Below, in pieces: positions 16,917 to 60,100 of a stretch of DNA of 64,000 nt (position 1 is its first letter; the number at the start of each line of letters is the position of its first letter). The stretch is from positions 617,681 to 681,680 of the forward strand of contig QPGO01000023.1 in NCBI GenBank assembly GCA_008632985.1, written 5' to 3'. The stretch is from Psammoneis japonica (Eukaryota). The notes under the pieces were generated by a model. That model saw only the letters and a program-made list of their open reading frames with translations. It did not search any database and had not been told where the DNA came from. The translations under genes were made by a program, and so were the position numbers.

Positions 16917-17446
16917 GTTCTCAACACCAATCAGCTTTTTTCTTCAGCTAAATCTGTATACAGCACATGCCATTGTCATACAAGCTAAAATAGACAGCAA
17001 GAGATCAATGAGATTCGGTGTTGGACTACTTCGTACAGCAGTGTTGCGTTGACTTCGTCGTCATTGTGCATCTCAGCAAAAAAAGCGCAAACTATTTGAT
17101 GGCCGGCCAGACAGCTCATGAGTTGAGTCGGACGGGTCATTAAATCTAAGTATAGATTGTTACGGGATTGAATACCATACTGTACAAATGGCGATATATA
17201 CATTAAATCCCTGAAGGACGCACATTGAATTTTCAAATTTTGGCGACACAATATTTGCCGCCAACATTTTTTTTTGCGGTGTGATGTGTGATGCAGCAAC
17301 GCAGTTGTGGACGATTACACAGAAGTTGTAGTCATTAAAAAGACTGGCTTCAGCTTTTAAAAGTAGTGGCCTAGTCTTAGCTAGTCTTCCTAAACCTTTT
17401 GCAGCAGCATCTATTCTTCCTGTGTTTCTTGTGAGAAGTCTCTAGT

Positions 17447-18637: not shown

Positions 18638-19768
18638 TTACGCTGCCTTACTCGGCAAGCATGTGTGGGTTTCCCATCCTTGACATGACCAACCTTTACC
18701 CTCTTCTCCCTTGCAAATATGATAATCCTCCATATACAAGTGACGCAAAGATTCCCACTTTGCCCACCCTGGTGTCAAATCTCCTTTCAACGGAAAATAA
18801 ATGTCATGAAGTCGCGAAAATGTCAGATCTGGTAGCTTTGCAAAAGCTCGTCCACTCTCAGCCCCTCCATGAAACAATATTGAGAGGTCTAGCATAACTT
18901 GGGGACAACCTTGAGCTAGGACTTGCGTAAGGTCCTGAAATCTCATCGAGTTCTTGAACGTAATATTCTTGTCCAAATCGCACACTCGAAGCGCAACGGC
19001 GTTATAGGTATCTTCATAGTCCCCACCATTATTCCAAAAAAGCTTTTTCGACCTGGAGCATGAATCCAATCCCTTCATCAGATCGTCGGACATGATGTAA
19101 CCCCATCCACGGATCCATGAGAGATGTGTTAGTAGTTCTCCAGTTCCAATATAATTTCGATCCACGTTTTGACCGAATCCACCAAGAAACCGGTTACGGG
19201 GCCATGTAATAGAATCTTCTAGTAGACGGTCGAGTAGAAGGTATGATTCATCATCGAGCTTCATGTGATAGTCAGCTTGGATATTCAAGGAAGCCCATTC
19301 ATACCACGCATTCATCTTGCCATTATTGTGGACGTCCGGACTGTTCAGCACTACGATGTCGCCAAAGTGATTCCGTTCTATCTCCAGTTCAGTCACCTTA
19401 TGCGTCGCATCCCGGGGATTTCCTTGTACGCCGCTTACTTGCTCATTTCCAATGAGAAAGTACACCAGCACTGTACCATTTATCACCGCGGGATGTTTCA
19501 TCCACGTATCTCGGTGCATTTGCCGACGCATAAAACTTGAACCACGTGGAGGTCTTTCTTCCCAGTCGAACGACGACACGATAGAAATGGCAATTTTGTA
19601 TTGTCTTGAATCCCCTGACGATGAAGTAACATTTCCGAAAACCTCGGCAGCTAACTTGGATTCTCGGTCAACCAAGTCAGTTCGGGAGAAGTAATTGTTG
19701 AACACGCCCGGGATTGCAACTCCAATCAGCACAAGCATCACAACCACTTCAACGATAAGCTTTTTCAT
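18638..19768 (-). CDS. GT31 beta-1,3-galactosyltransferase-like protein, copy 1
   Basis: Type II N-terminal TM anchor, RRQMHRDTW, E...GDIV, YHMKLDDESY, GWGYIMSDDL, YED. Confidence 0.8.
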   Translation of the reverse strand: MKKLIVEVVVMLVLIGVAIPGVFNNYFSRTDLVDRESKLAAEVFGNVTSSSGDSRQYKIAISIVSSFDWEERPPRGSSFMRRQMHRDTWMKHPAVINGTVLVYFLIGNEQVSGVQGNPRDATHKVTELEIERNHFGDIVVLNSPDVHNNGKMNAWYEWASLNIQADYHMKLDDESYLLLDRLLEDSITWPRNRFLGGFGQNVDRNYIGTGELLTHLSWIRGWGYIMSDDLMKGLDSCSRSKKLFWNNGGDYEDTYNAVALRVCDLDKNITFKNSMRFQDLTQVLAQGCPQVMLDLSILFHGGAESGRAFAKLPDLTFSRLHDIYFPLKGDLTPGWAKWESLRHLYMEDYHICKGEEGKGWSCQGWETHTCLPSKAA

Positions 19769-19864
19769 TGTATGATAACCTCTTTCAATATGGATCTTGA
19801 GGAAGTGGCTTTGGGAAAAAGCGATGAGAAGCGCGACTTAATTTTTGTGGGATCAACATCAATA

Positions 19865-22800
19865 AAAAAATTGTGACACGATGCGGTTTGACCGTCTGTC
19901 AGGTGGTGCCCAAAGTTTGCTGGCTGCGATGGCTGATGGCAGATGACAGTCGCAGCAAATTCACGATCCCAAACCTCCTCCACTTCCCGCTCCTGGCTTG
20001 CCTGCCCCCACTCTCAACCCTTGTGCCGAGGCACACCACGTGAGCACCAAGCGGAAATTCAATGCAGCACATGAAAGCCAACACGAAGCAACCCTCACAT
20101 CTGCCCTGAACGACGATGCCGGCATCTGCCTGATCCCCTTTGCCCCATCGATCACTCAGGAGCAACTCACCCGGCTGCTTTGCTCACTGTCTCCTTTTCA
20201 GAGCCAACCAAGAACACCCTGTCCCTGCTCCACCTGCCCCTCCTTGGACCACTGAATCCTCCTTCCAACATCCAGCCGCCCGCCCTGCATGCACGCCCAA
20301 CTGTCACCCTCACCACCACCCTCCCGGCCACCACTGCCACTGCCACTTGGCAAAACACCTCTGACGCACACTTCAGCCCAACCCATCACACCTGTGCCAC
20401 ATCACAATGGGGCCTTCAAAGCCTTGGCTTTGTGATCACCAAGTCCCTTGCTGACCAACTCTTGCTCGTCGTTGTTCTGTGCCAAGTTGCAGCAACAAGA
20501 ACTTGCTGACCCCCTTCAGACCCACACCTTCCCCACCTGCATGACCCAGTTCTTCCACCCTTGCTCCACATCTGTCTCTCCTCCCTCCGTGCCACTGGGT
20601 GACATTGCACATGAACTTCTCATGTGCTTGTGCCAGGCAGTTTCCCTGGCCAACAATCGAAAACTGCGCACCTTTGCTGGATGGCTGTGTCTCATGATTG
20701 TCTCCACAAACAAAGAAGATTGCTGCAATCAGCATCAAAACACAAAAACACGGGTGTCCACATCTGCCTTGCACTGTGGCTTGTCACCAGCAAAAGCCAA
20801 GAAAGTCACAGGGGCACAAGCATGGGCGGGCATCTTGAGTCAACTTGACAACCATCAGCTTGGCAGTCCACAAATGATCTGCTGATGCAACTGATGGACA
20901 GTGAACAAAGTGTTGCACTTCACATCATCATCACCAAAGCTGCACACTCAACCTTGAGTTCATTGGTTCCTTCTCTTGTTGTGGTCGGCTGTTTTCTCCT
21001 CTTTTGCTGTGCATGCTGCCCTGTGGTGCAAAAGCCCCACCAGATGTGTCTGTCAGCAGCATCTTTGTCCCTGATGATGGGAGACAAGTTCTTGCAGCAA
21101 GGCAGTTGCCTGAGCATGAGGACAAGGCAGACAGAGGAGGACACACTGCTCCAAAAAGAAAGAGACACATGATGCTGGCAGCTTTCCTGCTGTCCTCTCC
21201 CTGCAATGCTGGGCCTCACATGTTGGCATGGCAGAGCTGAACCATGAGTCAGCCAGAAGATGTGGATGAGCAAATTCCCAGTTTTGCACAATGGCACAAC
21301 AACTGTGCATGAGAGGACCACTAAAAATTGTCTTGTTGTCAATGGCTTCTGATGGCCCCGGCCACAAACATGTCAACAAGTGCCAGGTTTCTGTGGCTCT
21401 GTCCAGAGCATCCACAAAAGGGGCTTCACTGGCCACTTCAGGGGAGGGGGGAAGCTTGGTGGTGCCAGGGAAATGCACAGGGAACATTGCTGGAGCAAGC
21501 AAGTGTGAGTTGCTTTGTTTCTCTTTGGGTGTGCCAAAAGGAGAGGCTCTGTGATGAGAAAGTGACCCTCAGACTGCACTGCTGTTGCTGCAAATGGCGA
21601 ACAATGCAAGACAGTGCAAAACAAAAAAAGTTGAGATTTGCACCTGAATTTCAACAATTTGTTGGCACACTGGTGGAGAAATTTGTGTTTCTGTCATTTG
21701 GTTGTTTGGGTTGGGGGACCAGAAAATGACCAAGTTCTTTGCAAGCTCTGTGTGCATGACCCATTTTTCAAAATGTGAGCAAATTCCACATCATGGCTTG
21801 CACTCATTTAAAATGTGTTTGCCCACAAGTCCAGACATGAAAAAAAAAAAGACAACAAAGCTTGGTGGACTCTCAAAACAGCCAAAAAACAGAAAAACAG
21901 TGCATGGATGGGCCGGGAGTGGTCAACTGCTTCTCCACAAAAACGATGGGGGCTGCTGGACACTGGCATCATCATTGAGTTCATTTGCTTGCACAGATTT
22001 TTTTTTGTTCTTTGTTTTGCACACAGAGACTGCTTGCAAGCTCAGCCTTTGAAAAGTGACCAGCCCAAAAGCTGGCCATTGTTTGCCCTGTCTGTCTCCT
22101 GGTCAAAGGTGGAAAAGGAGACCAGAAGGCAGCACAGATGGACACAAGGGAACATTTGTTGTAAAGCTGCCTGTCGAGGGCAATCAAGGTGCCCCCTTTT
22201 TCTTTGACACTTTTGCATCTCAGCTTGGGGCACTCAAACAAGCCAGTTTCAGCTTGCTCAAATGGCCAAGGCATCACTTCTCTTTTCTTTTCTTTTCTTT
22301 TCAGGGAATTCTTGTTGAAAAAGCTTGTCATCCAATGAGAAACAACAAGATGATCATTGTTGCAAACAAAACTCAACTCCTTGAGTTGCCCTTGCAGAGC
22401 ATTTTTTGACCTGCTGGCCCTCATTAGATTTGCACTCAAGAGCACAGGGCATTGTGTGTTGAGCACATCACAAAAGCAGTGTGCAAGTCTTGAGTGAATG
22501 AATGTCACAAATTTGCTCCAAACAACAGCTCCACATCAAAGCTGCACGTTGGTCTCAATGTGATTCTTTTCAACATGTCATCATCTGCAGGCTCACAAAC
22601 CACCAAAGTCATGGCCATGAAACTGAACACTGCACTTGATTGAGTGGCTTTTTTGCTCACATTCTTGCAGTGCTGATTGAGTCCCTCTCTGGGTTTGGCA
22701 CCCTGCCACACTGAAGTGCTTGCTCATGCCTTTTGAAGAGCTTTGTGCAAAAGTCCATTTCTCCCTTGTGGGAAAGTGCTCTGATGCAGCAAACTTGCCC

Positions 22801-23780
22801 CCCCCCCAGTTAACAAACCAACCACTGCCATGACTGCAAAGGTCAAATGATGGACAACACAGGCTGACAAAGAAGAAACTTGGGGAAAGAGGAAGTTTTG
22901 CTGCAATTTTCAATTTTCCAGTGTGCCACACCTTTGTTTGGTGACATTTTTTGCATCACAGCATGAGCGACATGCATTTTTTCATTCTCAGGTCAGACTG
23001 CATCTCAGAGGGTCTTTCTTCAAGGTGTGTGCCTTGCTTGCCAGTTGACTTTGCACCATGGTGTGCTGTGCACATTGTCATGCTGGCTCTGTTGTTGCCA
23101 AAGCATTCACGAAAAACAGCAAATGGCTGGTGCAGTCCACTGAAAAAATGCAGAAATCCAGACAAATGTGCAGATTCTTTGCAATGGCTTCTTTTCAATT
23201 GTGAGGCAAGCACACCAACATGACATGGCCAGCTGAAAAGGTGTGTGACAAGATTGAAGTGGCCTGCATGGAGGACAATGTGTGCAGCATTGTGCAAAAT
23301 GAAACAACTGCTTTGGTGCCACCAACCCCATCCATGTTTCTTGCAACACAAGACGACTTAATTTTTTGCATTGTCTTGAGAGGATGGAGCAAAAATTCCC
23401 TGTTGGTCTGATTGCTTGTCAGGTTGTGTCAAGGGGTTTGTTCCTTTTGTTCTTTTGGCATTTTCCATGACACTCAGCTTCAGTTGCAATTCTTCTTTTG
23501 CAATTGTGACAAGAGAAGGTTGATTGTCATTTGCTCTGTTGTGGCATTTGTTCATCTTGAGACACAAGACCGGCAGAATGCACTTGTTGGGATGTGACAA
23601 TTTGTCCACTGCTCCTCAATCTCCCATCTCGTTTCCAAAGTCATGTCTTCCATCCGCAGTGCTGTGCCTGGCAGTGGGCCATGCAATGTAAACAATGCAA
23701 CCAGCAAACACCACATTTGTCAGCAGGTGTCTCCATGGTGTGTCGCCTGCTGGGTCTCCTTGCTTGCAATTCACATTGTA
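19865..23780. other. TpA- and CpG-depleted block of degenerate transposon-like DNA (block 1)
   Basis: No TA dinucleotide found between 19865 and 21321, and only a handful after that. Strong CA/TG excess. Overlapping Tyr-free ORFs appear in all frames. Confidence 0.9.
19900..20500 (+). mobile_element. Degenerate 3' end of a non-LTR retrotransposon (restriction-like endonuclease C-terminal region, CRE-like)
   Basis: AHHVSTKRKF...ALND..GICLIPFA/IDHSG and W...F.PTHHT..SQWGLQSLG resemble recalled C-termini of diatom RLE-type LINEs; not verified by search. Confidence 0.4.
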
Positions 23781-23949
23781 CCGTAGACAACCCATGTGAA
23801 TGGGTTTTGCGGACCTTTGCACTTCCCATTGACCGCATTCAGCAAGAGATTTGTGACCTTAGTTTTAGTTCTAGTTTCTCAAGCGGGGCTCGCTGAGTGA
23901 GTCATTTCTGCCTTCGCGATTCTTTTTTCACTTTGTTTTTTGATTCCTC

Positions 23950-25134
23950 TCAATTTTTCTTTTCTTCTCCTTTTCTTTTCCTTCCTCCCTTGTCAACTGG
24001 ACGACCCTTTCCATTTGATTGACTCTTTGGCAGGCATGTGGAATATTCCCAGCCTTGACATGACCAACCTTTACTCTCTTCTCCCTTGCAAATACGATAA
24101 TCCTCCATATACAAACGACGCAAGGACTCCCACTTTGACCAAGCAGGGGATAGATCTCCTTTCAACGGAAAGTAAATGTTGTGAAGTCGAGAAAATGTCA
24201 GATCGGGTAGCTTTGCAAATGTTTGACCGCTCACAGCCCCACCGTGAAACAACATAGAGAGGTCTTGCATAACTTGGGGGCACCCTTGAGTCAGGACTTG
24301 TGTAAGGTCTTGAAATCTCATCGAATTCTTGAACGTGATGTTGCTGTCCAAACCGCACACTCGAAGAGCTACGGCATTGTAGGTATCTTCGTGGTCACCA
24401 CCATCATTCCAAATCAGCATCTTCGATCTTGAGCAGGCACCTAGACCCTGAATCAGGTCATCTGACATGATATAACCCCATCCACGGATCCATGACAAGT
24501 CTTTCAGTAGTTCTCCGGTTCCAATATAGTTTCGATCCAAATGTTGGCCTTGTCCACCAAGAAATCGGTGACGGGGCCATGAATTAGAATCTTCTAGGAG
24601 ACGATCCAGCAAAAGATACGATTCATCATCGAGCTTCATGTGATAGTCAGCCTGGATATTCGACGATGCCCACTCGTACCAAGCATTCATCTTGCCATTG
24701 TTGTGAACGTCCGAACTGTTCAGCAGTACGATATCACCATAGTGATCCCGCTCTATCTCCAATTCAGTTATATTGTGTGTCGCATTCAGAGGATTCCCTT
24801 GTACGACAGGTATTTGCTCGTTTCCAATGAGAAAGTACACAAGGATTGTTCCATTTTTCACCGCGGGATGTTTCATCCACGTATCACGGTGCATTTGCCG
24901 ACGCATAAAACTTGAACCACGTGGAGGTCTTTCTTCCCAATCAAAGGCAGATGTGATTGCGATTGCAATTTTGTGTTCTATTGAAGTCTCCAATGAAGAA
25001 GGAACCGTCACAGAGTCAACTTCGGTAGCGACCTTGGATTGTCGAAGAAAGGATTGCGTTTGGGCGAAATTGACGCTCACCATAACCAAAGAAAACAAAA
25101 TAATCACACCCACTTGGACGACACCTTTCTTCAT
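23950..25134 (-). CDS. GT31 galactosyltransferase-like protein, copy 2
   Basis: Same motifs as copy 1, with an extended basic C-terminus. Confidence 0.8.
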   Translation of the reverse strand: MKKGVVQVGVIILFSLVMVSVNFAQTQSFLRQSKVATEVDSVTVPSSLETSIEHKIAIAITSAFDWEERPPRGSSFMRRQMHRDTWMKHPAVKNGTILVYFLIGNEQIPVVQGNPLNATHNITELEIERDHYGDIVLLNSSDVHNNGKMNAWYEWASSNIQADYHMKLDDESYLLLDRLLEDSNSWPRHRFLGGQGQHLDRNYIGTGELLKDLSWIRGWGYIMSDDLIQGLGACSRSKMLIWNDGGDHEDTYNAVALRVCGLDSNITFKNSMRFQDLTQVLTQGCPQVMQDLSMLFHGGAVSGQTFAKLPDLTFSRLHNIYFPLKGDLSPAWSKWESLRRLYMEDYRICKGEESKGWSCQGWEYSTCLPKSQSNGKGRPVDKGGRKRKGEEKKN

Positions 25135-25649
25135 TGTAGACCTTCAATGTGGACAAAGTAACACTTCGGTTGGACAATATCGTACAATTGTTGAGAATCA
25201 TTCTGTCGAGAAGTCGAGAAAACTGTCAACTGTCAACTGGCCAAGAACTCTAGCTAGCTAGTGAGCAAAGTAGAGGAAGGTATTTTGATAAAACAGAGTG
25301 TGTTTTGTGATCCCGCAGCAGCGGCAGAGGATGCGCAAGATCTCGCGCGGCCGCGAATGTCGAATGTGTTGAACGTTGAACACATTGAATGTCTCTGCGA
25401 TGGTGTCTGATGCTGACATGCATGCTGGTGTTTGGCGTTTGTTTCTAGAGGGGGGGGGGTTGACGGCAGCACCCATGAACTCAAGATCCTTGAAAATCTG
25501 GTGAACAAACAATGCAAGTTGGACATTTTCCCAATGCAGAAAACACATGGGAGCGGCTGGTCACTGCTGACCCCCTGGACAAAAACAACCTCCAGCCCCC
25601 CCNCCCCCCGCATCTCAGCAAAATGCCCGCGTGGCGCTGCTTTGGCAGA

Positions 25650-27600
25650 CTGTCTCACATCTCACCTGCCACAGCTGCGTTGTCATTCTCCAACCAGAAA
25701 AACTCTCCAATCGCTCCTGCGTCAGCTTAAAATTCATCCCCACACACGCCACGCTTCGCTTGCAAAACAGCAACAATCTCTCAAGGAGCTCAAAGAGTGC
25801 GCTGGCGCGCTGGCGCGCTGGGGCCACACAAGCAGGACCTCAACAAGTGCAACTTCTTTGCAAATTCACCCATCAATGATGACAACAACTGCAACCCAAA
25901 AATGTGTCTTTGACCCAACTGGGCACCAACTCCATGGGGGAAACGAGCCAACATCATCTGACACGCCACTGCGCCACACTGTCAAAAACAACAGACTCAC
26001 AAAGCTGTTTGTCAAGCACTGAGGAAGAGCCAACCTCCTGCCTCACCAATGTTGTGTGCAGTCTTGTCCACAAACAAAAGACCATTTCATTCTTGTCACC
26101 CAATGCAACAAGAACCTGGGGCCCGCCATTGTCAAAAAGACAGAAAATGTCAAAATGGCGCTCCATCCAGCACAACCAGCCATCTCTCAGCAATTTTTTA
26201 ACCACGGCAAATGTCAAAACTTGGGTGCACTCAAAGCCCATGTGCATGAACACCACATCAAGAAACTTCCCAATGGCTGGCCAAAAGAGAGCACAACAAA
26301 GCCATCTCACCACCATGGAGTGCAAGCACCTCAAATTGTGTCACAACACTGAAGCTGCCAACCAGAATCCATTCCCTGTCTTCTGCCTTGCACTGGGAGT
26401 GCACAAGCCTCAACCACTGTGACCCCAATCTCTGCCATTTCTGTGAAGGGTGGCCTCCTCTGTGGCCTGGTGCATCTGGGCAGACAACAAAGTGCAAAAG
26501 GTCACCCAAGCTCAGTGTGCTCCTGCTGCTTCAAGAGCTTGCCAGAGCTGAGAAACAAGCCAGTGCAAATGGGCGTCCCACTGAACTGCCTCCTCTTCAC
26601 ATCTGTCACCAAGGCTCACCACCCCAACACCCCAACAAGCAAAGCCCTTTGCAAGACTGCCTCCTGCCTCTGTTGCCATGAAAGCAACTGCCATGGTGTC
26701 CCAACAGAAGCCCTCCTCATTGATGCCCTCCAACATGCAATGAAAAATGACATCTTTGCATTTGGAGCACCATGTGGCACCAACTCCTCAATGGAGCTGC
26801 TGCCATGGGAACACCATCTGCCCCTGCATGTGTGCCACACTGCACCCTCTGTGAAGCCACACTCCTGGAGGAGTCTGGTGCCAACCTCCTCCAGCACAAG
26901 CAATTCACAGATGACAATGTCTTTGGCATCTGGCTCATCACCAACCACACCACCAATGTCACCTGTTGTTGGACTGCACTTGCCTCTGGCACTAATTGAT
27001 GGCTTTGATTTCACCTGGTGGCTGGGTTGTTGCAAGTCCCAGAGCCTGCCAAGCTCACATTGTGGACCTGATGACATCACTCCAAGAAGCCCCCCGCCCA
27101 CCTCCACACCACCCTCTGTAAAAAAAAACAAAGAACCTTTGCCTGTGCATCCCACAAAACACTTGGCTCACCTGCCAGCTGACTGGCCCAGCTGTGGTTG
27201 TGCTCTTCCAATTCTCAGACAATTTTGCTCCAACCCCAATGATGCCAAAGCAGAAATGAAGCCACTCTGCCATTGACTGCTTGCCCAAGGATGCAAACCT
27301 GGCAAGCTGCAACCCATTTTCCAAAAAGCATGCAACCATTTTTTGGCAACATGATCAAAACAGTGCAGAATCTCTGAGGAGCAACCCCATCTTCCTCCAC
27401 GCACTGCACCACCCAAGAAATGATCCACCATGATCCAGCGACCAAAGCAACTGTGGAAAGGAATGATGGCATGCTCTCCTTGCTCTCAACCACTTGCCAC
27501 CACTCACAATCATGCCAGCCAATGAACCAGCCTTGAGCAAATGACGGTTTGTTGCTGCCATTCACAAAACTTGGGCAATCTCTGTTTGTGCCAAATCCTC
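25650..27600 (+). mobile_element. Degenerate Penelope-like retroelement (RT ORF, many frameshifts)
   Basis: Ordered PLE-type motifs: SLKFIPT, NCNPKMCL*PNW, CNKNLGPAIV, MKNDIFAFG, GAAMGTPSAP, HKQFTDDNVFGIW (YxDD-equivalent), NLCLCIP, IFLHALHHPRND, QNLGNL. Confidence 0.8.
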
Positions 27601-27656
27601 CACACACACCAGTGCCCTCCCTGCTTCATCCCACTGGATTGCAAATTGAGAGGCCA

Positions 27657-27694
27657 GTGAGAGAAAGAGAGACAGAGAGACTCAAAAAGAGGAT

Positions 27695-27730
<36 letters not shown>
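27657..27730 (+). repeat. (GA)n microsatellite just downstream of the Penelope-like relic
   Basis: Imperfect, then perfect, GA run. Confidence 0.9.
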
Positions 27731-30073
27731 AGAAGAACAAGAGAGAGCAAGCAAGCTAGATTGAATTGGAGCCCCCCAAATCAACTCAACTCATCTGCCC
27801 CTCTCCACCCAGATCTTTCCAATGCAGCAGCCTCAACCACCTCAACAACAGCAACTGGCCGCTGATGAAGCTGCCGTGCAAAAGTCTTGCTTGTCCTGAC
27901 TTTGGCCAATGCAGCTGTGCCTTGCCATTGCCAAAATTCAGTTTGGATGAACATCAAATTAAGTGGTGCTGCCTCAGCTGCTTTCCATTCCGTCTTTGTC
28001 CCATTTGATGGAGAATCAGCTGCAACACTGGCTCATTTGTTCATTCAAGAGAGAGAACAAACTGCAAAAATGGAGTGTGTTTGCAGTGCCACATCACCAT
28101 CATGCTGAGCTGCAAGAAAGCACAGAAAAAGGGAAATGCTGCATTCTTGTGCAAAAGAGCAGGGGCACTGTTCTCCAGCTGTGCTGTTTTTTTTTGGGGG
28201 GGGGGGGGGGGGGGGTCATTTGAGCATGCTTGTGGCTTGCTGTGTTTTTGCCACAAAAACTTCTTCAAACAAAAAAAAAGCAGCAGCTGACTGCCCTCAA
28301 TGCTGCCACCAAGGACAAAAGTGTGCTGGAGGAGTGAAAAACCAATCCACCCTCCCAATGACAACCTCTTGGAATCACATCTCCTGATGGCAAGCCACGA
28401 AACCTTGCAAAATTGCTGGGAGCACATGTGGAAAAAGCACACAGGAAAATTGGCAATGTGCTCAGAGACAAAGAAGTGTGCAAGATTGGATGGCTGGAAG
28501 GCTGGCTCCTGTCTGCCCTCTTGTTGCCTGTTCTGAAAACTGGTGCAGGTTGAACACAGCCAGCGGCGTGTGCATTCATCAAGATGTGGGTGTGCTGCAC
28601 AAAACAAGGTTCTGAGAAAAACACTGTTGTTTGTCAGGAGGAGGTGGCTGCACTCCTCCAAACCACCACCCAAGGCACCAAGGGGGACCCTGACAACTTG
28701 ACAAAACAACCTGCTGTGAACTTTTCAACTCTGAAATCCTTTTGAAATCTCTGACAGTCAACTGCAAAATTGAAAACCTCCCAATGTTGGAAACATGGCT
28801 GGCTGACAACTGGCCCTCAGGCTCAACAGTGACAAAACAGTCAGTGGGCAGCTGGCACAAAAGCGCACAGTGCCACACCACCGTGCTGAGCAGCTGGGCT
28901 GCAAACAAGGTTTCAAGGCCATTTTACATCAGTGCTTGCTCACCCCCAAAGTGCTGAATCCTGGAGGAAAGCAGACCCAGCATTCCCAACCCCCCTTTCT
29001 GTCAAATGTCAGTGGGAGGGGGGCACTCTCTGCTGCTCCTCGTTCCCATGCTTTTGCTGTGGGAGCACCTCTTTGGGAACTCTGGCATTGGTGCCCACAC
29101 CCACAGCTGCAAGTTGACCTGCAAGCCTTGCAAGAAGACCAGCCCCAAAAGCCCCCAAGGTGGGTGCTGGCATGTGAAATGGCACAGGCCTCAAAGAAGA
29201 CACAAGCCATTCATTTGAAAAGATCAGCGGGACACTTCTGCTGTGCCAGCAGAACATCTGTCCCCAGTGCACTCATGAAGAAGGAAACATTGTCAAATTA
29301 GAGACAGCTCTTGGCAGCGCAAAAAAGTTGCTGTGGTTGCCACAGATGCTTTCACCAATGCTCGCTCCTGAAGGTGAGCAGTGATGAGGGACCCAGATGC
29401 ACCTGCTCATGGGGGGCACAGAGCCCTTGCTGCAAGGATGCACCAGCGTGCAACACTCTGTGTGCAACAAATTTCTGCTGATTTTTTCCATTTTACACTT
29501 GCCTTTCAGGGCAATGAACAACGACAATGAAGGTCCTTGAAGCAGTGGTTTCCAGCATTTTTGAAAGTCACTTCACAGGAGAGCACAAACAAACCCAAAT
29601 CTAAAGCTGAAATGGACCCCAAATCAAATGAGGCAACCCATGTGGAGCAGGGTGGTTGGCTGGTTAGATGCAGCAAAATCACCTGACCCTGGCAAATTAA
29701 GATCACACCTCAGGGTCTCTTTGGGTGGTTTTAAATGCCGTGCACATCTGGCATCATCACCATCCATGTAAAAAGCTGGGTGTTTTCATGGCACATGTGA
29801 TGTCGCAACTTGAACTTGCATCCAATGCAGTGCACAAAACGAAACAAAAAACAACAAAAAAGAGCATCTCCCACCACCATGGGGCTTGTTCGTTTGCATG
29901 TCAACGGCCACGTCATCTGTCATCTGTCATTGGAGCATTGTCACACACAACAACCAGGCAGTGCTTGATTTGATTGTCATGTTAAATTTGTTGTTGTTGT
30001 TTGCCATCATGCTGCACTTGGACATGCCAAAAAGCAGAGTGCTTGCTGACTTTTCCATTGTTCTCATGACCGC

Positions 30074-30074
<1 letters not shown>

Positions 30075-30103
<29 letters not shown>
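30075..30103 (+). repeat. (CA)n microsatellite
   Basis: Perfect AC run. Confidence 0.9.
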
Positions 30104-30104
<1 letters not shown>

Positions 30105-31104
30105 GTCCACAAGCACTGAGTTTGTTTCCAATTTAGATGGATCAATTTACATCCAGTGAATGTGTCCATCATGCCATTGGCATCATGGTTTTTTTCTCAT
30201 GAAAGGTGCAGAAAATGACATTTTGGTTTCCAAGCAAGGCAGCAACAGTTTTGTCGTCAACACACTTTTGGTGAGGAGTGATGACATGCCCCAGCCAACA
30301 CACATCTGAGATGGCAACAACATTGGATCCATCATGTTGAACTGGTCCATTGCACCATTGCTTGTCGCTTCAGAAGCCTTGTGCTTGTTGCTTTTTTAAC
30401 CAACACCACAGTTGAATTTTTGTTCCTTTGTCAACTGCGCGATGCAGTGAATGCAATGTGCTTTGTGCTTTGCCACTGGACAATCATGGGGGAAACCAAA
30501 CTGTGCAGTGGGCGGGAGCTCCAAACCATTGGCAACCAGATCTGTGAATGGCTCATCAAGCTCATTCCAAATCTGTGCTCAAATGGTTTGGAGCAGCTGC
30601 CCTTCATTGCGTCTGTGCATTGTCCACACTGGAGCTAAATTTGCCACCTGTGGACACTCTAACCGGCCAGCCACCCAGCATCCTTGGCTCTGCATCACCA
30701 TCCTTGGCTCTTTTTGCCCTTGCAAAAATGTGACAATCTTCCACAAACAAATGTGACAGTGAGATTCCCACCTTTGTCAAACAGGTTTTGGGTCTCCTTG
30801 GAATGGAAAGTGCACGTCAGCTCTGCAAACCTGCGAACCTTGCAACCCATGGTGCTCTTGATGTCAAAGACCATGTGACAACCCCTGTGCTTGCATCCCA
30901 CCAGTGCTGGACTGAATTGCAACCATTGCATTGCACATTTTCTTCTCAAAGAGCTTGAGCCAGAAATTAGCCCAATCTCGTCTGCTGCAACAGGCGCGTG
31001 TTGTCTTCTTGCTGACGGAACTTGTGAGAGGACTGCCATGGGCGGAGTTTTTCAGGGTAGCGGCAGTGAATGTGTGGATGACAACGAGTCACGTTTGACG
31101 CTAC

Positions 31105-31295
31105 CAGCCCCATCATGAAACCTGGCAGAACGGTCTAGCACAACTTGAGGATAATTATTTTGAGCTGTTACTTGTGTATGATCCTGAAATCTTAATGCTA
31201 TCCAAACCGCAAACTCGAAGAGCTGGAGGGAGGTGTCTTTCGTGGTCACCAACACTCCAAATGAACTGTTTCGATTTTGAGCAGGCACTTAGGCC
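31105..31295 (-). pseudogene. Degenerate internal fragment of a fourth GT31 copy
   Basis: Aligns by eye to about 31510-31720 (e.g. GATTTTGAGCAGGCACTTAG, CAAACTCGAAGAGCT, TCCTGAAATCT) and encodes GLSACSKSK. Confidence 0.8.
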
Positions 31296-31300
31296 CCCAC

Positions 31301-32419
31301 TCAGATGAGGCATGTGGCGTTTTCCCAGCCTGTACATGACCAACCTTTATTCGCTTCTCCCTCGCAAATACGATAATCCTCCATATACAAACGACGCAAG
31401 GACTCCCACTTTGACCAAGCAGCGGATAGATCTCCTTTCAACGGAAAGTAAATGTCGTGAAGTCGAGAAAATGTCAGATCAGGAAGCTTTGCAAATGGTT
31501 GACCGCTCGCCGCCCCACCATGAAACAAAATAGAGTGGTCTAGCATATCTTTCGGACAACCTTGAGCTAGGACTTGTGTAAGGTCCTGAAATCTCATCGA
31601 ATTCTTGAACGTAATGTTGCTGTCCAAACCACAAACTCGAAGAGCTACGGCATTGTAGCAATCTTCGTGGTCGCCTTTATTCCAAACAAGCTTCTTTGAT
31701 TTTGAGCAGGCACTTAGACCATGAATCAGATCATCTGACATGATATAACCCCACCCACGGATCCAAAACAAATTTTTTAGTAGCTCTCCGGTTCCAACAT
31801 ATTTGCGATCCAAAGGTTGGCCTTGCCCACCAAGAAATCGGTTACGGGGCCATGTCTTGGAATCTTCTAGGAGACGATCCAGCAAAAGATAAGATTCATC
31901 ATCGAGCTTCATGTGATAGTCAGCCTGAATATTCAACGAAGCCCATTCATACCACGCATTCATCTTGCCAGTGTTGTGAACGTCCGAACTGTTCAGCAGT
32001 GCGACATCGCCATAGTGATCCCGTTCGGCCTGCAATTCCGTTATATTGTGCGTCGCATCCAGAGGATTCCCTTGTACTCTGGGTTCTTGTATGTTTCCAA
32101 CGAGAAAGTACACAAGGACTGAGCCATCTTGAACCGCCGGATGTTTCATCCACGTATCTCGGTGCATTTGCCGACGCATAAAACTTGAACCACGTGGAGG
32201 CTTTTCTTCCCAATCAAAGGAAGAGGTGATTGCGATTGCAATTTTGTGTTTTCCTGAATTCTCCAAAGAAGAAGGAACCGTCACAGCGTCAACTTCGGCG
32301 GCGTCCTTGGATTGTCGAAGAAAGAACGATTGGAATTGGGTGAAATTGACGCTCACCATTAAGGAGACCAAAATAACCACAACCACTTGGACGACATGTC
32401 GCTTCATGGTAAAAACCAT
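31301..32419 (-). CDS. GT31 galactosyltransferase-like protein, copy 3
   Basis: Same motifs; C-terminus shortened to TCLI*. Confidence 0.8.
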   Translation of the reverse strand: MVFTMKRHVVQVVVVILVSLMVSVNFTQFQSFFLRQSKDAAEVDAVTVPSSLENSGKHKIAIAITSSFDWEEKPPRGSSFMRRQMHRDTWMKHPAVQDGSVLVYFLVGNIQEPRVQGNPLDATHNITELQAERDHYGDVALLNSSDVHNTGKMNAWYEWASLNIQADYHMKLDDESYLLLDRLLEDSKTWPRNRFLGGQGQPLDRKYVGTGELLKNLFWIRGWGYIMSDDLIHGLSACSKSKKLVWNKGDHEDCYNAVALRVCGLDSNITFKNSMRFQDLTQVLAQGCPKDMLDHSILFHGGAASGQPFAKLPDLTFSRLHDIYFPLKGDLSAAWSKWESLRRLYMEDYRICEGEANKGWSCTGWENATCLI

Positions 32420-54106: not shown

Positions 54107-57100
54107 TCACAGCAACTCCAACGCCTTGCAAAGCTCAATTGCTTCCATTTCGGTTTCACGGAGCCGGTGGCGTTCAAATGTGTGCGGACAATCTATGCAT
54201 GAACAGTTTGCAAGCGGAGTGACAACCCCTGGAGCTTTGTTGTGCGAAGCCTCTGAACGACGTGTGCCTCTAGTGTCATTGCATTGGCGGAGAGAGGCAA
54301 ACGTCTCCGGGCTTTCAAAGCATCCATTGCATCTGCTGCATATACCTGCAACCTTATGAGCCTCCTGCTGGGCATTGTTCAGGCGCAACATGGCGGTGTG
54401 AGCTGCCTGAATACCATCTTTTCGGCAATCTGCACAAACGACCGCTTTTGCTTTTCCGTTCGCTCTACATTTCGCACCACATAGACTGCACATGTCACTG
54501 CCAAAGTAAGATGAAATCATTTGATTGCTTCCAGTCTTGGTGATGGGCCAGAAGTGAATGCGAGTTCGTACTTTCGGACATGCCTCATACCAGGAATTAA
54601 TGTTCACATTGAATGGTGCTAGTCCAAGGCATCGCTGGAGCGCTGCATTGACGTGTTTCGTTATGTAGTATCCAGCATGGAGAGAGTAAGCATCCCACTG
54701 TTCAAGCAACTCCATCGGCGTGAGCACACAGTCACGCAAGCGCCAGTTGGACCCTGGCGTTGAAACAATTACATATGCGAGACGCTCTTTGTGACGAACA
54801 ATTCGTCCAGGGTCGGCTTCAGAGAGGCGACGTGCAAGCGCAGCCTGTACTGGGCCAATTCTCCCGCCTCTATATTTGCTCCTCACCCTACCCGTCAAGA
54901 TGAAGTCAGACACTGGCAGTCGTCCAGCACGAATAAGTGACCATTGACGACACAGATATGCATTGACTGCATCTAAGCCACTCTTAAACAGGGTGATGAG
55001 CGCATTTCGAAGTACCTTTTGTGTCAAAGCACATTGATCTCGACGAACTGTTTCGATCCCTTTTGCCTCAAAGGTCGGCTTTCTTTGATGGGCCGAATCA
55101 TACTTCATTCCGCAGTATTTCTTTTTCTGGGATAAGTAGAGCGGAATGGGTGGTGCGTGAGTGGCTGCTCTGCAGTACGCGAAGAAAAAGCTATCACGTA
55201 CCGTCTGCATCATTGACGCTCCATACACTTTTTCAAGCTTTAGTTGAACCGGTGGTGGATTCGAAGCTGTAACGGCCTTGCATAAAGCCTCGCCAAACTC
55301 AAAGGCTTCTTTCACTGATCGGCGAGGAAGCTTGATAAAGAGAGAATCGGTATCACCATAAATGACGTTCGCGCCGCTCCACTTTCCATTCTTCTCCCTT
55401 CCCCATGTATTTGCAAGGTCAATGGCATTTCGAAGAGTCTTTCTACCGCATTCAACGATTGCATCGGCGACAAGAGGCATCGCGCATCTTCCGGAAAAGG
55501 TCGCGGAGGTGTCTAGAGAAAAAACGAGTGAGCATCGAAAATCGAATTACAGCGGTAAATAAATTGCTGCACAATTCTGACTCACATCCATACGTGACAT
55601 TTGCGACATATTTCAGTGCCAACTGACGAGCTTCAAGCTGCCTCTGTACAGAGGGGGCAAGATCGGGAACAAGGCGTTTGTATTCTTTCAGAGCCTTTTT
55701 CAACATTGCACGTGTACTTAGTAACTCATCCAACACCTGTGGAAGAACTCCTTTCAAAACAGACTCGGCAACAAATATGGTGCCAGTTGGAACAGCATAG
55801 GCACGATCGTTGAGTCGTCGTTTGTTTGCTGCCGCCTTTGAAGATACACACGAAGAAAGGGACTTCATGTGGTGAGCAAGAACCGTTGCGGTGCGACTTT
55901 CTGGGTAGGCAAAAGGACCTAGCCGCTTTGTAGTCTGCCCCAAACGATGCATCTCTCTTCGCGTGCTGTGATACTCTAGACGACCGGCACATGTTGCGTA
56001 ACAAAGATTGTATGCGATGACCAGCGACGGATAAAGAGCTGTGAAATCACACACGACCACCGGATCGTGGTAAACACCGGACTCGGGCTCGAGAGTAAGT
56101 GCTTGGCACTCAAGTGCTTCTTGTCGCCCTGTGTCTTCCCCAGAGGGCGAGAAGAAAAAGTAACATCTGTCTTCTTCTTTTCTAACGTCACTCTTGTTAC
56201 ACGTAGCATTGCGTATTTCGGCTGCAAGCTTTCTTCTGAGCTTCCACGGGCTTTGTGTCTGCGATACACTCTCGCTACTCAAACTGGAACCAGGATCAGT
56301 TCCTGTGCTTTCGTTCTTGTCGGAGAACGGATTGATCTGTTCACCTTTTTTCGACCCTCTTTCATCTGACTGTATACTTTGTAAAGCTCGAAGTAGAACG
56401 CCTTCAACTTTGTACTGACTGCCACGAATACCCGGGAAACTTTGTGAAAATTCGACTCCACTCAGCCTGGCAGCCTCGCCAGCTCTACCAACAACATCCA
56501 ACGCGTCAAAAAGAAGAAGGCACGCAACTCCTTGGCAAAGTCGATGCTGCAGAACTCTCCACCTGTCTCTTCCATTGTTGCCACCGTACCACGCCGAGAG
56601 GACCAAATCATCGTGGTACGGGATTCGTTTGTTCAGAACAGTAGCGACCATCGCCGGTAAGTAGGAAGCATTGGGATGTTTAACTTCCTCGGCAACAATT
56701 TTCCATCCACAAAACACCAGCCTTCCTGAAATGGAAGCTGCGGCAGCACCCGGGCCGACTCTATCGTCCCATTCCCTTCCAAGGCCACTGCCGGCCCACT
56801 GATGATCCCATTTGGTTGATTCGTCCTTTGACACCGTTGCACTGGGCTGGTCATCTTTAGAAACATCTTTCCAGGCGGCGCTTGGTTTTGCTCGTGGAGT
56901 TCGACCCAGGAGACGTACCATATCCACTTCGGAAGAGTTAGTGGCCGTCGTGTCGCTTCTCACCAAGGAATCGTTCCCTTGTTTCCCTAGTAATGCGCCA
57001 CGTTCAATTATATATCCCAAACCCGCACCTTGAGTATCCCAAGAAAGGAGCATATCAGGATCTTTCAATCTGACGATTGAAGCGAGCCTCAGGAGAAGAT

Positions 57101-60100
57101 GACGTTCATTACGAACAGGCTCCACATTAACATCCGAAGCTATTCCAAATGACTTCTGGAGCATGCTTGTTACCATTCTCTTTTCGTCACTATAGAGTGG
57201 TTCTTTCTCAACAGGAACAAAGATGCATCCGCGTTCTGCAATGTCAATGGCCTCTCCTCCTCCGGGATCTTCCCCAAAAACGTATACCACTGCAAATATC
57301 CTGTCTTTCTCCGAGTTTGGTTTCATTGCGATCTCCTTCGAGTCGTTGATTCCTGCCTTACCGGTGCGACACTGAACATGGATTTCAATGGACATTATGG
57401 AGAGAGGCATCGGGAGATCGTAGGAAGATGATAGCTTTTTCACTTCAGAACAGGCCGAAAGTTGAGCTCGATCACCGTTCAGACCAGTGTTCAAGCGCGT
57501 TGCAGCTTTCAATCCTCCGCCACCTTCGACGTAAATGCGTCCACCAATCTGGCCTATGCCATCTAACGCCTGCGGTGTCTCTGTGACATCCAATTGGGAC
57601 CTGGTAAGGTTTTCAGATCGTCCAGCTGGAGACTCGCTTAGAAAATCGCCGTGTCCATTTTGTCGGTTTCCGGCGATATTACATGCTGAGGATGCTCTCA
57701 TTGAGGGAGACAACTCTTTCTCTGAAACCGCATTTTCACTTGGTGACAGGGAGAGGGAAAGCTGTTGGCTTTGACTTTGACTCGGAATATCATCGCGGGC
57801 TGTCCACTCAACCTCTTCTATTTCTTGAACGCCAAGGACCTCCTGGTGATCTTGACGCCCGGATGCCGGCAGGGCGGTGAGTTTCCTTGAGTTCTCATCT
57901 ATTCTCAAGTTCATCGGCCCTTTAGCTGTTCTCCGGTTAGGATTATCTGACACATTCTTGTGTCGTTTCGATTCTCCACAGATATTTTCCCCTCGCTTTC
58001 TCTTCTTTCTTATCCACGTCTCAACAAGTCTTCTAGTTGGCGGCGCATCGACTGTTTCCAAATACCCACCACGAACTTGCAATCCGTTTGGGCGCAGCAT
58101 TGCTTCTGGTGGCGTTGGTGTCTCTGTTCGTTGACGGTTGACGACAGAATCTAAGCCAACTAAGGCTGGTGCTGTCGTGTAAGATGAGGGATGAATGTGT
58201 TCAGCTGGGCTTTCGAGACCTTCCGTATCCCTGCGTGTTTCCAAAAGACGTTCACTTCCATCTGGATTCCTAGAAGAAAGCAATGTATCATTTAGTGCAA
58301 CATGTGGTTCTTCGATGCTTTCAGAGCTTGCTCCAACGTCATCGGACGGAGACATGACTCCAGAGTCAGCAGAAGAATTTGAGAAATGACTTTGCTGTTC
58401 AAGTACTTGGGTCAGTAAGCCGCAGCTTGACTGTGGGGATGCGACAGACTCATCATCCATCGTACTGCTCTCTCCGTCATCGTCCGTTTCAATGCCTTCA
58501 TTCACCCTTGCTTGGATTCCACCGCCTTCGTAAGACGATATATCACTCTCTAGAGACTGGCGCGCATCATCGTTTTCCATCGCCGTCGCCGACAATGTCT
58601 GCCTAAAATCTTCTTCGTCCATGTGATTATCATCTACAAGAAAGCCGTCGTCTTCGATATCTTCTGGGTCTTCGTACGGGGTCAGTGTGTGCGGGTTGAT
58701 AAATTCTTCTACATGATAGACGGCGGAGCCTTCCTGCGTTATCAATTCAGCAACACTGTCTCCCCGGTCTAATCTCTGACTCAATTCCAATTCATCTTCA
58801 ATACTCAGTTGGGGGTCATCGCTCAATGAATGCTGCACGTCATCTGAGTTTTGAGTCAACGGGGGCGATCTCTCGTCTCGTGCTAGTCTTGGAGGCGACT
58901 GCGCATCATTTCGATTTGAAAAGGTCATTTTTGGAACATCTTGCGCTGACTCGAACTGAGCTTCAAGAGCTCCAAGTGCATTCAGCGCTTCGTCCTCAGT
59001 TGGTGTCAAGTTCAAGCCGTTTTTGGTGGATGCTTCAACATTCGTCGTTGTCTTCGAGGAGCGTTTCCGTAGTCTGGCGTCAGCAACGGATACAGATCTT
59101 GAATGCTTCTCGACAATGTCCTTCATTGCTCTACGGAAATCTTCCTCCGTACCTCTTACCGTCTGAAAGAGCCTACTCATTCCGGCGACCGCAAGCTTGG
59201 TACCAGGAACCGACGCGCCTTTCTTCACGTTGAGCGTGAATGGAGGCGTTGTTTGTGCAGCACTTTCGGGTGTTTGCTTGCTGAGAAAATCATCCTTTGG
59301 CTGTAGCAATGATGCCATGCGTTGTCGTTCCTGTCTCCAAATTTCCCTTAGACTTGGCACGGCTCTCCAATGAATTTTTTGCCTTTCCGTTGGGCTATCC
59401 GGCAAATGTGTCATTACACTCCGAACGTTCAGAATATGTTGGACGCTTGTGTCGATTTCCAAATCGCAACTAGTTTCCTTTCTTTGACAATGGCTGGTCT
59501 CCGCATTGCCATGATTATTCTGAAATCTGTCATGGTTAGATCGAGACGCATATGGAGTATTGCCGTGTCCTGAGTATGCGGAGTTTTCCCACAGCAACTC
59601 GGCCGGAACGTTGCTCGCAACAAAGGTTTTTTCATCCAACCGTGAATGCTCCGGTATTCTAGATTTGTTTGGTCGTCGAGCTGACTTTGGCATTGGTGAA
59701 CGGAAACGACCGTCTGAAACTTGGATATAAGCCATACCAGAGAGATTGTAATCCTTGAAAAACTGCATTGTGTAGGGAATATGAGCTTCGTAGCAGTGAA
59801 ACTTCAAAACGTCAGCGTCGCTCTGGATATGTTCTTGCGGCTGTGCATGGACTGACGGCACCAATTCGGCGTCATACTGCTGCGGGTCAGGATGGTAGGA
59901 CATTGGCACCTCGAGCCCTTTTTCCAAAGTTCGTTTGACCAGCCACTTGAGTTTTGGATTGTAGTATTCTACTCTAAGAAACGGAGCGGGAGGTCCGGGA
60001 CAGTACGTGTAAAAGCCACGTCCACACACTATTGTAATCTTCCGAATAAAGCGTGGTGCTTTTCTCAGTTCGGTGTTTTGCTTCGCATTCCTGCCATCGT

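Follow-up and report, generated by a model that had tools for sequence, protein, structure and literature searches.

TpA- and CpG-directed transitions have probably rewritten a dead retroelement and adjacent pseudogene DNA in place in a diatom chromosome

A stretch of 64,000 nucleotides from the diatom Psammoneis japonica (GenBank assembly GCA_008632985.1, contig QPGO01000023.1, positions 617,681 to 681,680 of the forward strand; hereafter the window, in which all coordinates are given) contains two multi-kilobase blocks, at 19865–23870 (block 1) and 25290–31050 (block 2), in which TA dinucleotides are almost absent and CG dinucleotides are rare. The reading that we favour, with a probability of roughly 0.7, is that two transition processes rewrote non-functional DNA in place in one chromosomal domain, the substrate comprising a dead retroelement, other DNA and part of a host gene duplicate. 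The first process would convert TpA to TpG or CpA (A:T to G:C), close to saturation and with a strong neighbour preference, and is probably enzymatic and chromatin-targeted, of the same kind as the TpA hypermutation of the chlorarachniophyte Bigelowiella natans. The second would convert CpG to TpG or CpA with little context preference, appears to be absent from ~700 bp at the gene-proximal ends of the blocks, and fits deamination of 5-methylcytosine (5mC) in CpG-methylated silent DNA. Direct support at this locus covers the composition of the blocks, the direction in which it changed, the fact that mutation acted in place, the separate extents of the two processes, the neighbour preference of the first and the escape of the neighbouring intact genes.

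A first-pass annotation of this DNA, made from the sequence alone, had described two multi-kilobase blocks nearly devoid of TA, with none from 19865 to 21321, and our counts bear this out. Only 29 TAs occur in 19865–23700 and 25300–31050 together (~9.6 kb), compared with 39–40 per kb in the flanks, and successive 1-kb windows contain 0, 2, 3 and 7 over 20001–24000 and 2, 3, 1, 8 and 6 over 26001–31000. The longest TA-free stretch spans 1459 nt between the TAs at 19863 and 21322 (no TA in 19864–21321), a gap whose probability at the flank TA frequency of ~3.9% is about e^-58; the eight longest TA gaps all lie within the blocks, and the longest elsewhere in the window is 209 nt. Expressed as strand-symmetric observed/expected (o/e) ratios, TA stands at 0.04 in block 1 and 0.06 in block 2 versus 0.58 in the flanks, and CG at 0.19 and 0.18 versus 1.00–1.01; CG is depleted almost as strongly as TA, a feature that the annotation had not stressed in its title and reasoning. 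CA/TG is raised to 1.78 in the blocks (1.13–1.15 in the flanks) and AA/TT to 1.29–1.31 (1.13–1.14 in the flanks). The blocks contain 0–8 TA, 3–22 CG and 92–133 each of CA and TG per kb, and the remainder of the 64 kb has 22–58 TA and 39–85 CG per kb. The excess of CA/TG and the sharpness of the edges, both of which had also been noted, are evident from these ratios and from the positions of individual TA and CG steps: block 1 begins between 19863 and 19865, block 2 begins at ~25290, and the right edge of block 2 lies at ~30980 for CG and ~31058 for TA.

Transitions confined to TA and CG steps account for the composition of the blocks. The density of pyrimidine-purine (YR) steps, 236.6 and 236.9 per kb in the two blocks, is close to the 241.2 and 238.3 per kb of the flanks, while TA+CG is down by ~83 per kb in the blocks and CA+TG is up by ~80 per kb; with YR steps unchanged and the loss matched by the gain, it follows that only transitions took place at these steps. 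The products are near strand-symmetric, with 112.6 CA and 110.1 TG per kb in block 1. As the YR counts are unchanged, the blocks look ordinary when written in a purine/pyrimidine alphabet.

Support for the assembled sequence was sought in the contigs of one public DNA run (X1), which belongs to one study with 3 DNA rows. These contigs cover 20593–24117, 26100–27331 and 28271–30066 along with other parts of the window, at a single-copy depth of ~50–65, and differ from the blocks at few places per contig (5 differences over 1259 nt in one case and 5 over 2279 nt in another). An assembly artefact is very unlikely to be the cause of the blocks, because the X1 contigs span them with a handful of differences, and the reads support the sequence to the extent that the limited independence of X1 allows. 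X1 also differs from the window in ordinary genes (for example, at 17370, 17378 and 18885), with only the other letter present at each listed place; it may come from a different genotype or haplotype of the same organism, and could still represent the data behind the assembly or a closely related genotype. Most of both blocks lie at single-copy depth in X1. The word depth in the bins over 19835–20968 is 398 and 159, compared with ~61 for single-copy sequence, and many alternative joints occur there, so that, judged by depth, further copies of the left part of block 1 exist in the genome.

Block 2 holds a nearly full-length dead retroelement gene, as tblastn and profile alignments place a reverse transcriptase (RT) family over 25623–27624 with frameshifts. 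Since the loss of TA removes TAA and TAG and leaves TGA as the sole codon that can close a frame, we looked for frames with too few TGA stops. The plus-strand frame at 25417–27273 contains 2 stops in 619 codons, compared with 13–23 in the other five frames, and its read-through translation (P0121, with X at stops) retrieved 23 proteins at E <= 1e-3 in a phmmer search of 1.84 billion representatives; the best relative is P0122 (E 1.7e-15), the best matches are ~620–670 aa long, and the relatives are 25–32% identical to the relic. When 141 proteins of this family were searched against the window with tblastn, the only match was 25623–27624 on the plus strand, covering family residues ~1–634; this relic is interrupted by TGA stops and at least 2 frameshifts and retains no Tyr codon. 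The profile built from 113 full-length members, over its positions 55–631, aligned to 25815–25958, 25966–26766, 26769–26999 and 27217–27621. The family alignment contains the RT-like motifs FTADAVSMYTNIPT, GTAMGTPPAP and R[YF]IDD; a Pfam scan of 13 relatives gave a sub-threshold RVT_1 match in one of them, and a truncated member carries a precomputed PF00078 assignment. An AlphaFold model of the relative P0125 (mean pLDDT, the predicted local distance difference score, 66.6) had TERT chains as its top Foldseek matches (7trd_A, E 4.7e-8, TM-score 0.40; TERT range 0.26–0.40), followed by viral RNA-dependent RNA polymerases and by group-II-like, LINE-1, retron and diversity-generating-retroelement reverse transcriptases.

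The family comprises at least 1181 proteins of ~620–690 aa at E <= 1e-10, nearly all on contigs of 2.5–4.4 kb, and looks like a compact single-ORF (open reading frame) retroelement that is frequent in marine eukaryote data. Its sources give only the name 'hypothetical protein', and the precomputed Pfam accessions are PF28514 and PF26215. Both the size of the elements, judged from contigs to be single-ORF units of ~3.5–4.4 kb, and the modelled fold, for which TERT is the best structural match with viral RNA-dependent RNA polymerases and other RTs close behind, suggest a likeness to Penelope-like and telomerase RTs; this is a lead for the relic family, which we leave unclassified. The Pfam scan of the 13 relatives showed no GIY-YIG nuclease, and Rfam found no hammerhead ribozyme in 19500–31500, where two matches fell far below threshold and where heavy mutation could hide one. 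A search of PDB sequences with the family profile returned 0 matches at E <= 1, NCBIfam gave nothing meaningful for the family, none of the 113 pattern matches in IMG/VR was a relative of the relic, and the ESM Atlas yielded no usable match to the 307-aa stop-free part of the RT frame.

The remaining content of the blocks is less clearly assigned. Pfam recognized 0 families in 12 translations of the six read-through frames of both blocks, the RT relic having first been picked up by phmmer alone, and the Pfam, RT-family and GT31 searches assigned no family to 27625–30650 of block 2. For block 1, the best match to the RT-family profile had an E-value of 2.7, and alignment to the GT31-type genes described below in the purine/pyrimidine alphabet gave nothing above shuffled sequences. 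Neither long terminal repeats nor terminal inverted repeats were found in the blocks, and a comparison of one block with the other (blastn, and 36-mers in the purine/pyrimidine alphabet) returned only a polypurine low-complexity match. A scan for coding potential in the purine/pyrimidine alphabet, with 17 ORFs of the window as its training set, had little discriminating power and left the RT frame unflagged.

The RT relic provides a record of the direction of change. We defined a conserved column as one in which at least 60% of 113 relatives share a residue, which gave 234 columns, and the relic keeps the conserved residue at 104 of these. None of the 16 conserved Tyr residues is kept: 10 are Cys (TGT/TGC), 3 are His (CAC), and Asn, Leu and Thr occur once each. 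Similarly, 0 of 13 conserved Arg residues are kept, 9 of them now being CAN or TGN codons; the replacements are 5 Gln (CAA/CAG), 2 His (CAT), 1 Cys (TGT), 1 TGA stop, 2 Lys, 1 Thr and 1 Glu. Ile to Val and Asp to Asn replacements occur at codon boundaries where they produce T|A to T|G or C|G to C|A changes. As a control, 19 relatives from outside the profile keep Tyr at 114 of 143 such positions and have Cys or His at 5 of 143. Tyr makes up 4.2% of the family proteins on average (range 2.8–5.3) and 0% of the relic, in which Cys and His together reach 12.8%. Since Tyr codons need TA, intact relatives cannot be TA-free, and, as far as these distant relatives show, intact copies of the element are not as poor in TA as the relic. 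Tyr-poor, Cys/His-rich fragments also occur among the relatives of the relic (P0127, P0135 and P0139), but their conserved columns show no change from Tyr to Cys or His. In P0135, Tyr is kept at 4 of 5 columns, whereas 5 of 9 Arg columns hold Trp, Cys, Gln or His, a pattern that resembles CpG decay without the TA process in an element copy of another organism.

The same direction is suggested by host-derived DNA. Three GT31-type galactosyltransferase genes stand in tandem on the minus strand, and both blocks occupy the spaces between them. All three have intact ORFs with matches to Pfam PF01762: paralog 1 at 18638–19768 (376 aa, E 1.1e-8; 53 TA and 57 CG), paralog 2 at 23950–25134 (394 aa, E 5.4e-10; 42 TA and 50 CG) and paralog 3 at 31301–32419 (372 aa, E 2.5e-8; 40 TA and 57 CG). 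They are 81–89% identical in nucleotides over 300-nt stretches and 73–83% identical in protein. The intact copies contain 40–53 TA per ~1.15 kb, and the gene between the blocks has o/e ratios of 0.50 for TA and 0.81 for CG, in agreement with the annotation, which had described normal use of TA in the flanking genes and in the middle copy. Upstream of the start codons, 97 nt separate paralog 1 from the left edge of block 1 and ~155 nt separate paralog 2 from the left edge of block 2; the right end of block 1 lies ~80–250 nt downstream of the stop of paralog 2. The intact genes show no excess of lineage-specific TA or CG loss, and no leakage from the blocks was seen.

A truncated fourth GT31 copy, also on the minus strand, straddles the right edge of block 2, with ~210 extra bases separating its two parts. 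The part inside the block (30671–30835, residues ~307–365) was located by tblastn, is hypermutated, and aligns to GT31 in the purine/pyrimidine alphabet with a score of 67–75 compared with at most 45 for shuffled sequences; the part outside (31075–31304, residues ~227–305; tblastn, 60–68% identity) is normal in TA and CG. Taking agreement of at least two of the three intact copies as the ancestral state, we found that 0 of 7 TA steps are kept inside the block (3 CA, 2 TG, 1 TT and 1 CC) and 0 of 4 CG steps (3 CA and 1 TC), compared with 3 of 10 TA and 4 of 5 CG kept outside. Other sites have changed to a similar extent in the two parts (28/107 inside and 44/182 outside), and for this reason we consider them to be of the same age. 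That the change ran from TA to TG/CA, by a process other than 5mC deamination, had been proposed in the annotation, and the RT relic, the GT31 pseudogene and the differences between two genotypes described below all point to it. The restriction to transposon DNA that had been proposed along with it fared less well: it agrees with the RT relic in block 2, is only hinted at in block 1 by the multi-copy depth over 19835–20968, and conflicts with the mutated host pseudogene. Because this host fragment was also mutated, the process appears to be regional and not strictly transposon-specific.

These observations bear on whether any mutation needs to be invoked, as the DNA might have lacked TA and CG from the outset (as foreign DNA of such a composition would) or be an artefact of assembly or sequencing. 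An unmutated copy of these very sequences was not seen, and 19835–20968 is multi-copy at 90% identity or more, so that a TA-free sequence could spread as such. At the very positions where the relic has TGY/CAY and CAN/TGN codons, however, Tyr and Arg are conserved in the RT relatives, a host GT31 fragment is affected, and the short-read contigs of X1 reproduce the blocks, leaving this explanation extremely improbable.

Additionally, comparison of the window with X1 indicates that the mutations arose at this locus. The displayed differences within the blocks comprise 30 positions, equivalent to 27 events: 11 exchanges between CG and TG/CA, 2 between TA and TG/CA, 3 double changes between CA and TG (at 21295–6, 22333–4 and 27877–8) and 11 others (6 transitions and 5 transversions). 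In the ~7.2 kb of flanks, X1 and the window differ at 5 isolated positions and in one cluster, which lies where a contig ends. Thirteen single and 3 double changes fall on ~150 TA/CG sites, versus 11 on the remaining ~9.3 kb of the blocks, and current or recent TA and CG steps, ~3% of positions, account for about half of the block events. Where one genotype has CA and the other TG, separate hits on opposite strands of one ancestral TA or CG in two lineages are the expected cause, and such doubles therefore suggest that the process went on at the locus after the genotypes split. Together with the affected host DNA, this argues that mutation acted in place. Editing of the element before integration, either as RNA by an ADAR-like A-to-I activity or as cDNA, would be conceivable for the retroelement in block 2, which has an RNA stage, and ADAR prefers a 5' U (bioRxiv 10.64898/2026.01.13.699255). 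Such editing does not account for mutations in the host pseudogene fragment and in DNA on both sides of the RT relic, for the near symmetry of CA and TG in block 1, or for the differences between two genotypes at TA and CG steps of the same locus. ADAR also favours a 3' G, and TAG is among the contexts in which TA survived here; we regard editing before integration as highly improbable.

In-place mutation at TA and CG could reflect one process or two, and the gene-proximal ends of the blocks separate them. The first ~700 nt of block 1 (19865–20600) contain 0 TA per kb and 32.6 CG per kb, and a sub-block of block 2 that overlies the 5' end of the relic (25300–25980) has 2.9 TA and 47 CG per kb, compared with 2.0–2.3 TA and 5.3–5.5 CG per kb in the block cores and 6.8 TA and 13.2 CG per kb in 29001–31050. 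Both of these ~700-bp CG-keeping sub-blocks adjoin the 5' ends of intact GT31 genes. Age does not account for the difference in CG, because 25300–25980 belongs to the same retroelement as the CG-poor remainder. The loss of TA and the loss of CG are hence separable processes, and the simplest reading is that CpG decay requires methylation that ends short of gene starts, a requirement that the TA process would not share.

The TA process is further distinguished by its context rule. None of the 29 surviving TAs is in an ATA/TAT context (share in the flanks 0.48, p 7e-9), 7 are in GTA/TAC (flanks 0.50, p 0.005) and 27 are in TTA/TAA (flanks 0.38, p 9e-10), 10 of which are TTAA; TTAG and CTAG are also among the surviving contexts. 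ATA/TAT is therefore preferred over GTA/TAC, and both far over other contexts, a rule that reads TA*T > TA*C >> TA*R when written for the adenine and A[T>C]A > G[T>C]A >> Y[T>C]A when written for the pyrimidine. Two further observations agree with it. The Tyr codons (TAY) of the relic became TGY 10 times and CAY 3 times, and among tetranucleotides ACAA/TTGT and GCAA/TTGC are roughly doubled while NTGA is barely raised, so that steps before A ended as CAA and steps before T as TGT. Surviving CG in the cores shows a weak deficit of TCG only (22/60, or 0.37, versus 0.52, p 0.02); the context rule is strong for the TA process alone.

A single deaminase acting on both A and C after a 5' T (T-A* to T-G and T-C*-G to T-T-G), with no need for 5mC, would explain why both depletions occupy one domain with right edges within ~80 nt, and it agrees with the slight TCG deficit (22/60 versus 0.52) and with N-CG-A contexts ending mostly as N-CA-A. 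ADAT2 enzymes are cited as deaminating A and C in DNA in the B. natans preprint, in the text of which 'CpG' occurs 0 times (bioRxiv 10.64898/2026.01.13.699255). The ~700 bp at the left of each block that are TA-depleted and still carry 33–47 CG per kb, along with a context dependence that is very strong for TA and weak for CG, make one dual enzyme improbable.

The same sub-blocks bear on an error-prone polymerase, one of the candidates of the first-pass annotation, in which mismatch repair would be drawn to T:G mismatches left by 5mC deamination and a Pol eta-like enzyme would mutate A at WA motifs (W, A or T) while filling the gaps. This would co-locate the losses of TA and CG as found, and TA is the hottest WA motif in antibody hypermutation. 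The fit is poor in other respects: AA/TT is undepleted (1.29–1.31 versus 1.13–1.14), and TA is fully gone where CG is kept. Pol eta also yields transversions, while transitions occurred at 13/16 Tyr codons and YR steps are conserved, and we consider a repair by-product very improbable.

Adenine deamination in DNA, the other candidate of the first-pass annotation, is the likeliest first step of the TA process, although we give it somewhat less than an even chance. By sequence, A>G on one strand equals T>C on the other, and the pyrimidine form of the context rule given above is as valid as the adenine form; a modification or lesion of T in R-T-A, such as hydroxylation by TET/JBP enzymes to 5-hydroxymethyluracil (5hmU), could thus come first, followed by mispairing or faulty repair that gives T>C. 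Modified thymines occur at TpA in some protists, although 5hmU opposite A is not known to be strongly mutagenic. The products are almost purely transitions, which are better explained by a change in the coding of one base than by error-prone repair, and a thymine-first route seems to us unlikely.

The TA process as reconstructed here has, at the level of sequence, the characteristics of a phenomenon described in B. natans by Mettrop et al. in April 2026 (bioRxiv 10.64898/2026.01.13.699255), so that the statement in the first-pass annotation that no matching system was known has been overtaken. In that preprint, of 231 new single-nucleotide mutations found in two viral regions, one an integrated giant virus and the other a virophage, 230 are A>G or T>C, and all 230 fall on TpA; the rate is ~6e-7 per site per generation compared with 3.5e-10 elsewhere (~1000x background), the process was active in 11/15 lines, RT and DDE domains of transposable elements (TEs) are enriched among TpA-poor genes, and an ADAT2-type adenine deaminase is proposed as the enzyme (bioRxiv 10.64898/2026.01.13.699255). 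Common to both cases, as far as the preprint text describes, are the change of TpA to TpG or CpA only, the confinement to domains of many kilobases (foreign or integrated DNA in B. natans), and a long-term footprint in which consecutive 1-kb windows are poor in TpA and rich in CpA+TpG. The preprint defines the footprint as three or more 1-kb windows with a TpA Rho of at most 0.43 and a CpA+TpG Rho of at least 1.52 (bioRxiv 10.64898/2026.01.13.699255); here, the windows over 20001–24000 and 26001–31000 have TA o/e of 0.00–0.12 and CA and TG o/e of 1.34–2.46, our ratios being per dinucleotide and the preprint's Rho summed. The change from A:T to G:C at TpA is found at 13/16 Tyr columns, now TGY/CAY, and at 5/7 pseudogene TAs, now CA or TG. 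As to the type of target, an RT relic is present in block 2, multi-copy depth only in block 1, and a host pseudogene fragment is hit as well.

The two cases differ in several respects. The host is a chlorarachniophyte (Rhizaria) there and a diatom (Stramenopila) here, and the targets are integrated viral DNA there and a retroelement relic with a host pseudogene fragment here. The nucleocytoplasmic large DNA virus region is given a Rho of 0.45, whereas TA o/e is 0.04–0.06 here, near saturation. CpG decay accompanies the TA process here and goes unmentioned in their text, and the neighbour rule TAT > TAC >> TAR was derived here and is absent from their main text. Relative to that main text, the new elements are therefore the host lineage, the near saturation, the retroelement and adjacent host pseudogene as substrates, the CpG decay that co-occurs and is yet separable, and the neighbour rule. 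In the literature searched, which left most subscription journals outside its scope, we found no report of TA hypermutation in a diatom, and only the B. natans preprint matched.

Other known systems resemble the blocks in part. Fungal repeat-induced point mutation (RIP) likewise kills mobile DNA by dense, domain-wide transitions with sharp edges that can spill into adjacent sequence (PMC3318451). RIP, however, is C>T mostly at CpA and creates TpA, while here TpA is destroyed and CA/TG o/e reaches 1.78; RIP makes many stops, while here TAA and TAG are removed; and duplication, which triggers RIP, has left no evident mark here, where three GT31 paralogs at 81–89% nucleotide identity are untouched and most of both blocks now lie at single-copy depth. 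The ADAR and APOBEC3 enzymes of animals share with the TA process deaminase-type transitions against mobile or viral nucleic acid and a preference for the 5' neighbour (U/T before the edited A in the case of ADAR, as stated in the B. natans preprint). Their substrates are RNA or, before integration, single-stranded cDNA, and one strand alone carries the marks, in contrast to the blocks, where both strands of resident chromosomal DNA are marked, host-derived DNA included. Decay by 5mC deamination matches the CG process in its conversion of CG to TG/CA, its small dependence on context, its restriction to silent DNA and its absence beside gene starts, and the evidence for it here includes CG o/e ratios of 0.18–0.19, the 0/13 conserved Arg kept and the 11 genotype differences between CG and TG/CA. 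It cannot remove TA, and the loss of CG (5 versus 57 per kb) is deeper than usual for a genome with a CpG o/e of 1.0 in genes. Diatom DNA methylation is mainly at CpG (PMC5124317), and loss of DNMT5a demethylates and activates young TEs in Phaeodactylum (PMC9998398). The DNMT4 enzymes, which are related to the fungal RID protein and encoded by 31/60 diatom species (PMC9998398), are a candidate alternative driver of the CG loss.

Genome defence may be the role of the TA process, because the process removes all Tyr codons, among them those for the active sites of polymerases and recombinases, as well as TA-containing signals. A broader proposal, which we hold only tentatively and consider rather unlikely, is that diatoms and chlorarachniophytes share an enzyme-driven, chromatin-domain-targeted TpA editor that has the neighbour rule as its signature, is independent of cytosine methylation and runs to saturation, a second and mechanistically distinct 'RIP' of eukaryotes. 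If so, invaders would be disabled through the loss of all Tyr codons (tyrosine recombinases and the YxDD motif of RTs being affected), of two of the three stops and of TATA-type signals, and, unlike RIP, the editor would achieve this without making stop codons; if shared by descent between both lineages, it would be old within the SAR supergroup.

Several points weigh against the reading of two in-place processes and its extension. The evidence base is a single locus in one 64-kb window, and no origin emerged for block 1 from Pfam, the RT profile or GT31 alignment. The ancestral states of the RT come from distant relatives (25–32% identical to the relic), and the pseudogene was polarised by three paralogs without an outgroup, with 11 sites inside the block. 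This polarisation is noisy, 6 of 10 'ancestral' TAs outside the block also being TG or CA. The context rule was measured against mostly coding host flanks in place of the unmutated element, and its effect sizes are therefore approximate. The event counts rest on 40 displayed differences out of 83 in the X1 comparison, and X1, possibly the assembly's own source or a close genotype, is not fully independent. In natural tRNA substrates of ADAT2/3, a purine mostly follows the edited A, a misfit to TA*Y. Among 72 metagenome loci that carry the neighbouring Kelch gene (567 kb), no TA-free block was found; this is a weak test, as the contigs are short and gene-dense and the diatom-like part (L001–L026) amounts to ~190 kb.

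TpA-directed hypermutation of resident foreign DNA has one prior report, the 2026 chlorarachniophyte preprint, and a saturated footprint in a diatom would mean that it is not a curiosity of one alga and may be widespread in marine protists. The end state is visible here, with TA at 4–6% of expectation and a relic gene free of Tyr, and the TA process can be separated from the decay of methylated CpG. The trinucleotide preference constrains candidate enzymes and, if true, gives a direct handle for identifying the enzyme responsible, and diatoms with CRISPR tools and methylation mutants allow genetic testing if those species have the process. Such blocks also mislead gene finders, as long ORFs appear where TAA and TAG are missing, and they hide transposons from homology-based annotation.

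Beyond the blocks, the window has a G+C content of 48%, and its genes are mostly long unbroken ORFs. Inserted or decayed DNA, at least 9.7 kb in all, interrupts the GT31 array, yet all three genes have kept their open frames. A neighbouring Kelch/DUF4110 protein has its best named relatives, at 45–53% identity, in pennate and centric diatoms such as Pseudo-nitzschia, Nitzschia, Phaeodactylum, Fragilariopsis, Fistulifera, Thalassiosira and Cyclotella, and its best unnamed relatives reach 59–61% identity, which points to a diatom with no near relative sequenced in the collection searched. At 54107–60800 on the minus strand, two adjoining ORFs of 457 and 1782 aa resemble the catalytic subunit of DNA polymerase zeta (REV3), an error-prone translesion polymerase, with DNA_pol_B, exonuclease and REV3_N domains; they lie 23 kb from the blocks, a proximity that we take as coincidence, having found no link.

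Block 2 contains several low-complexity runs, namely G11 at 25448–25458, a C-run at 25594–25610 with the single N of the window at 25603, (GA)35 at 27659–27729, G20 at 28196–28215 and (AC)14 at 30075–30103, and the X1 contigs break at several of these homopolymer and microsatellite runs. Both left block edges (19861–19880 and 25286–25310) come directly after A-rich words, AATAAAAAAA and GATAAAAC, and have TGTGA within the next ~20 nt, which may be due to chance or may mark a common feature of insertion or of the boundary.

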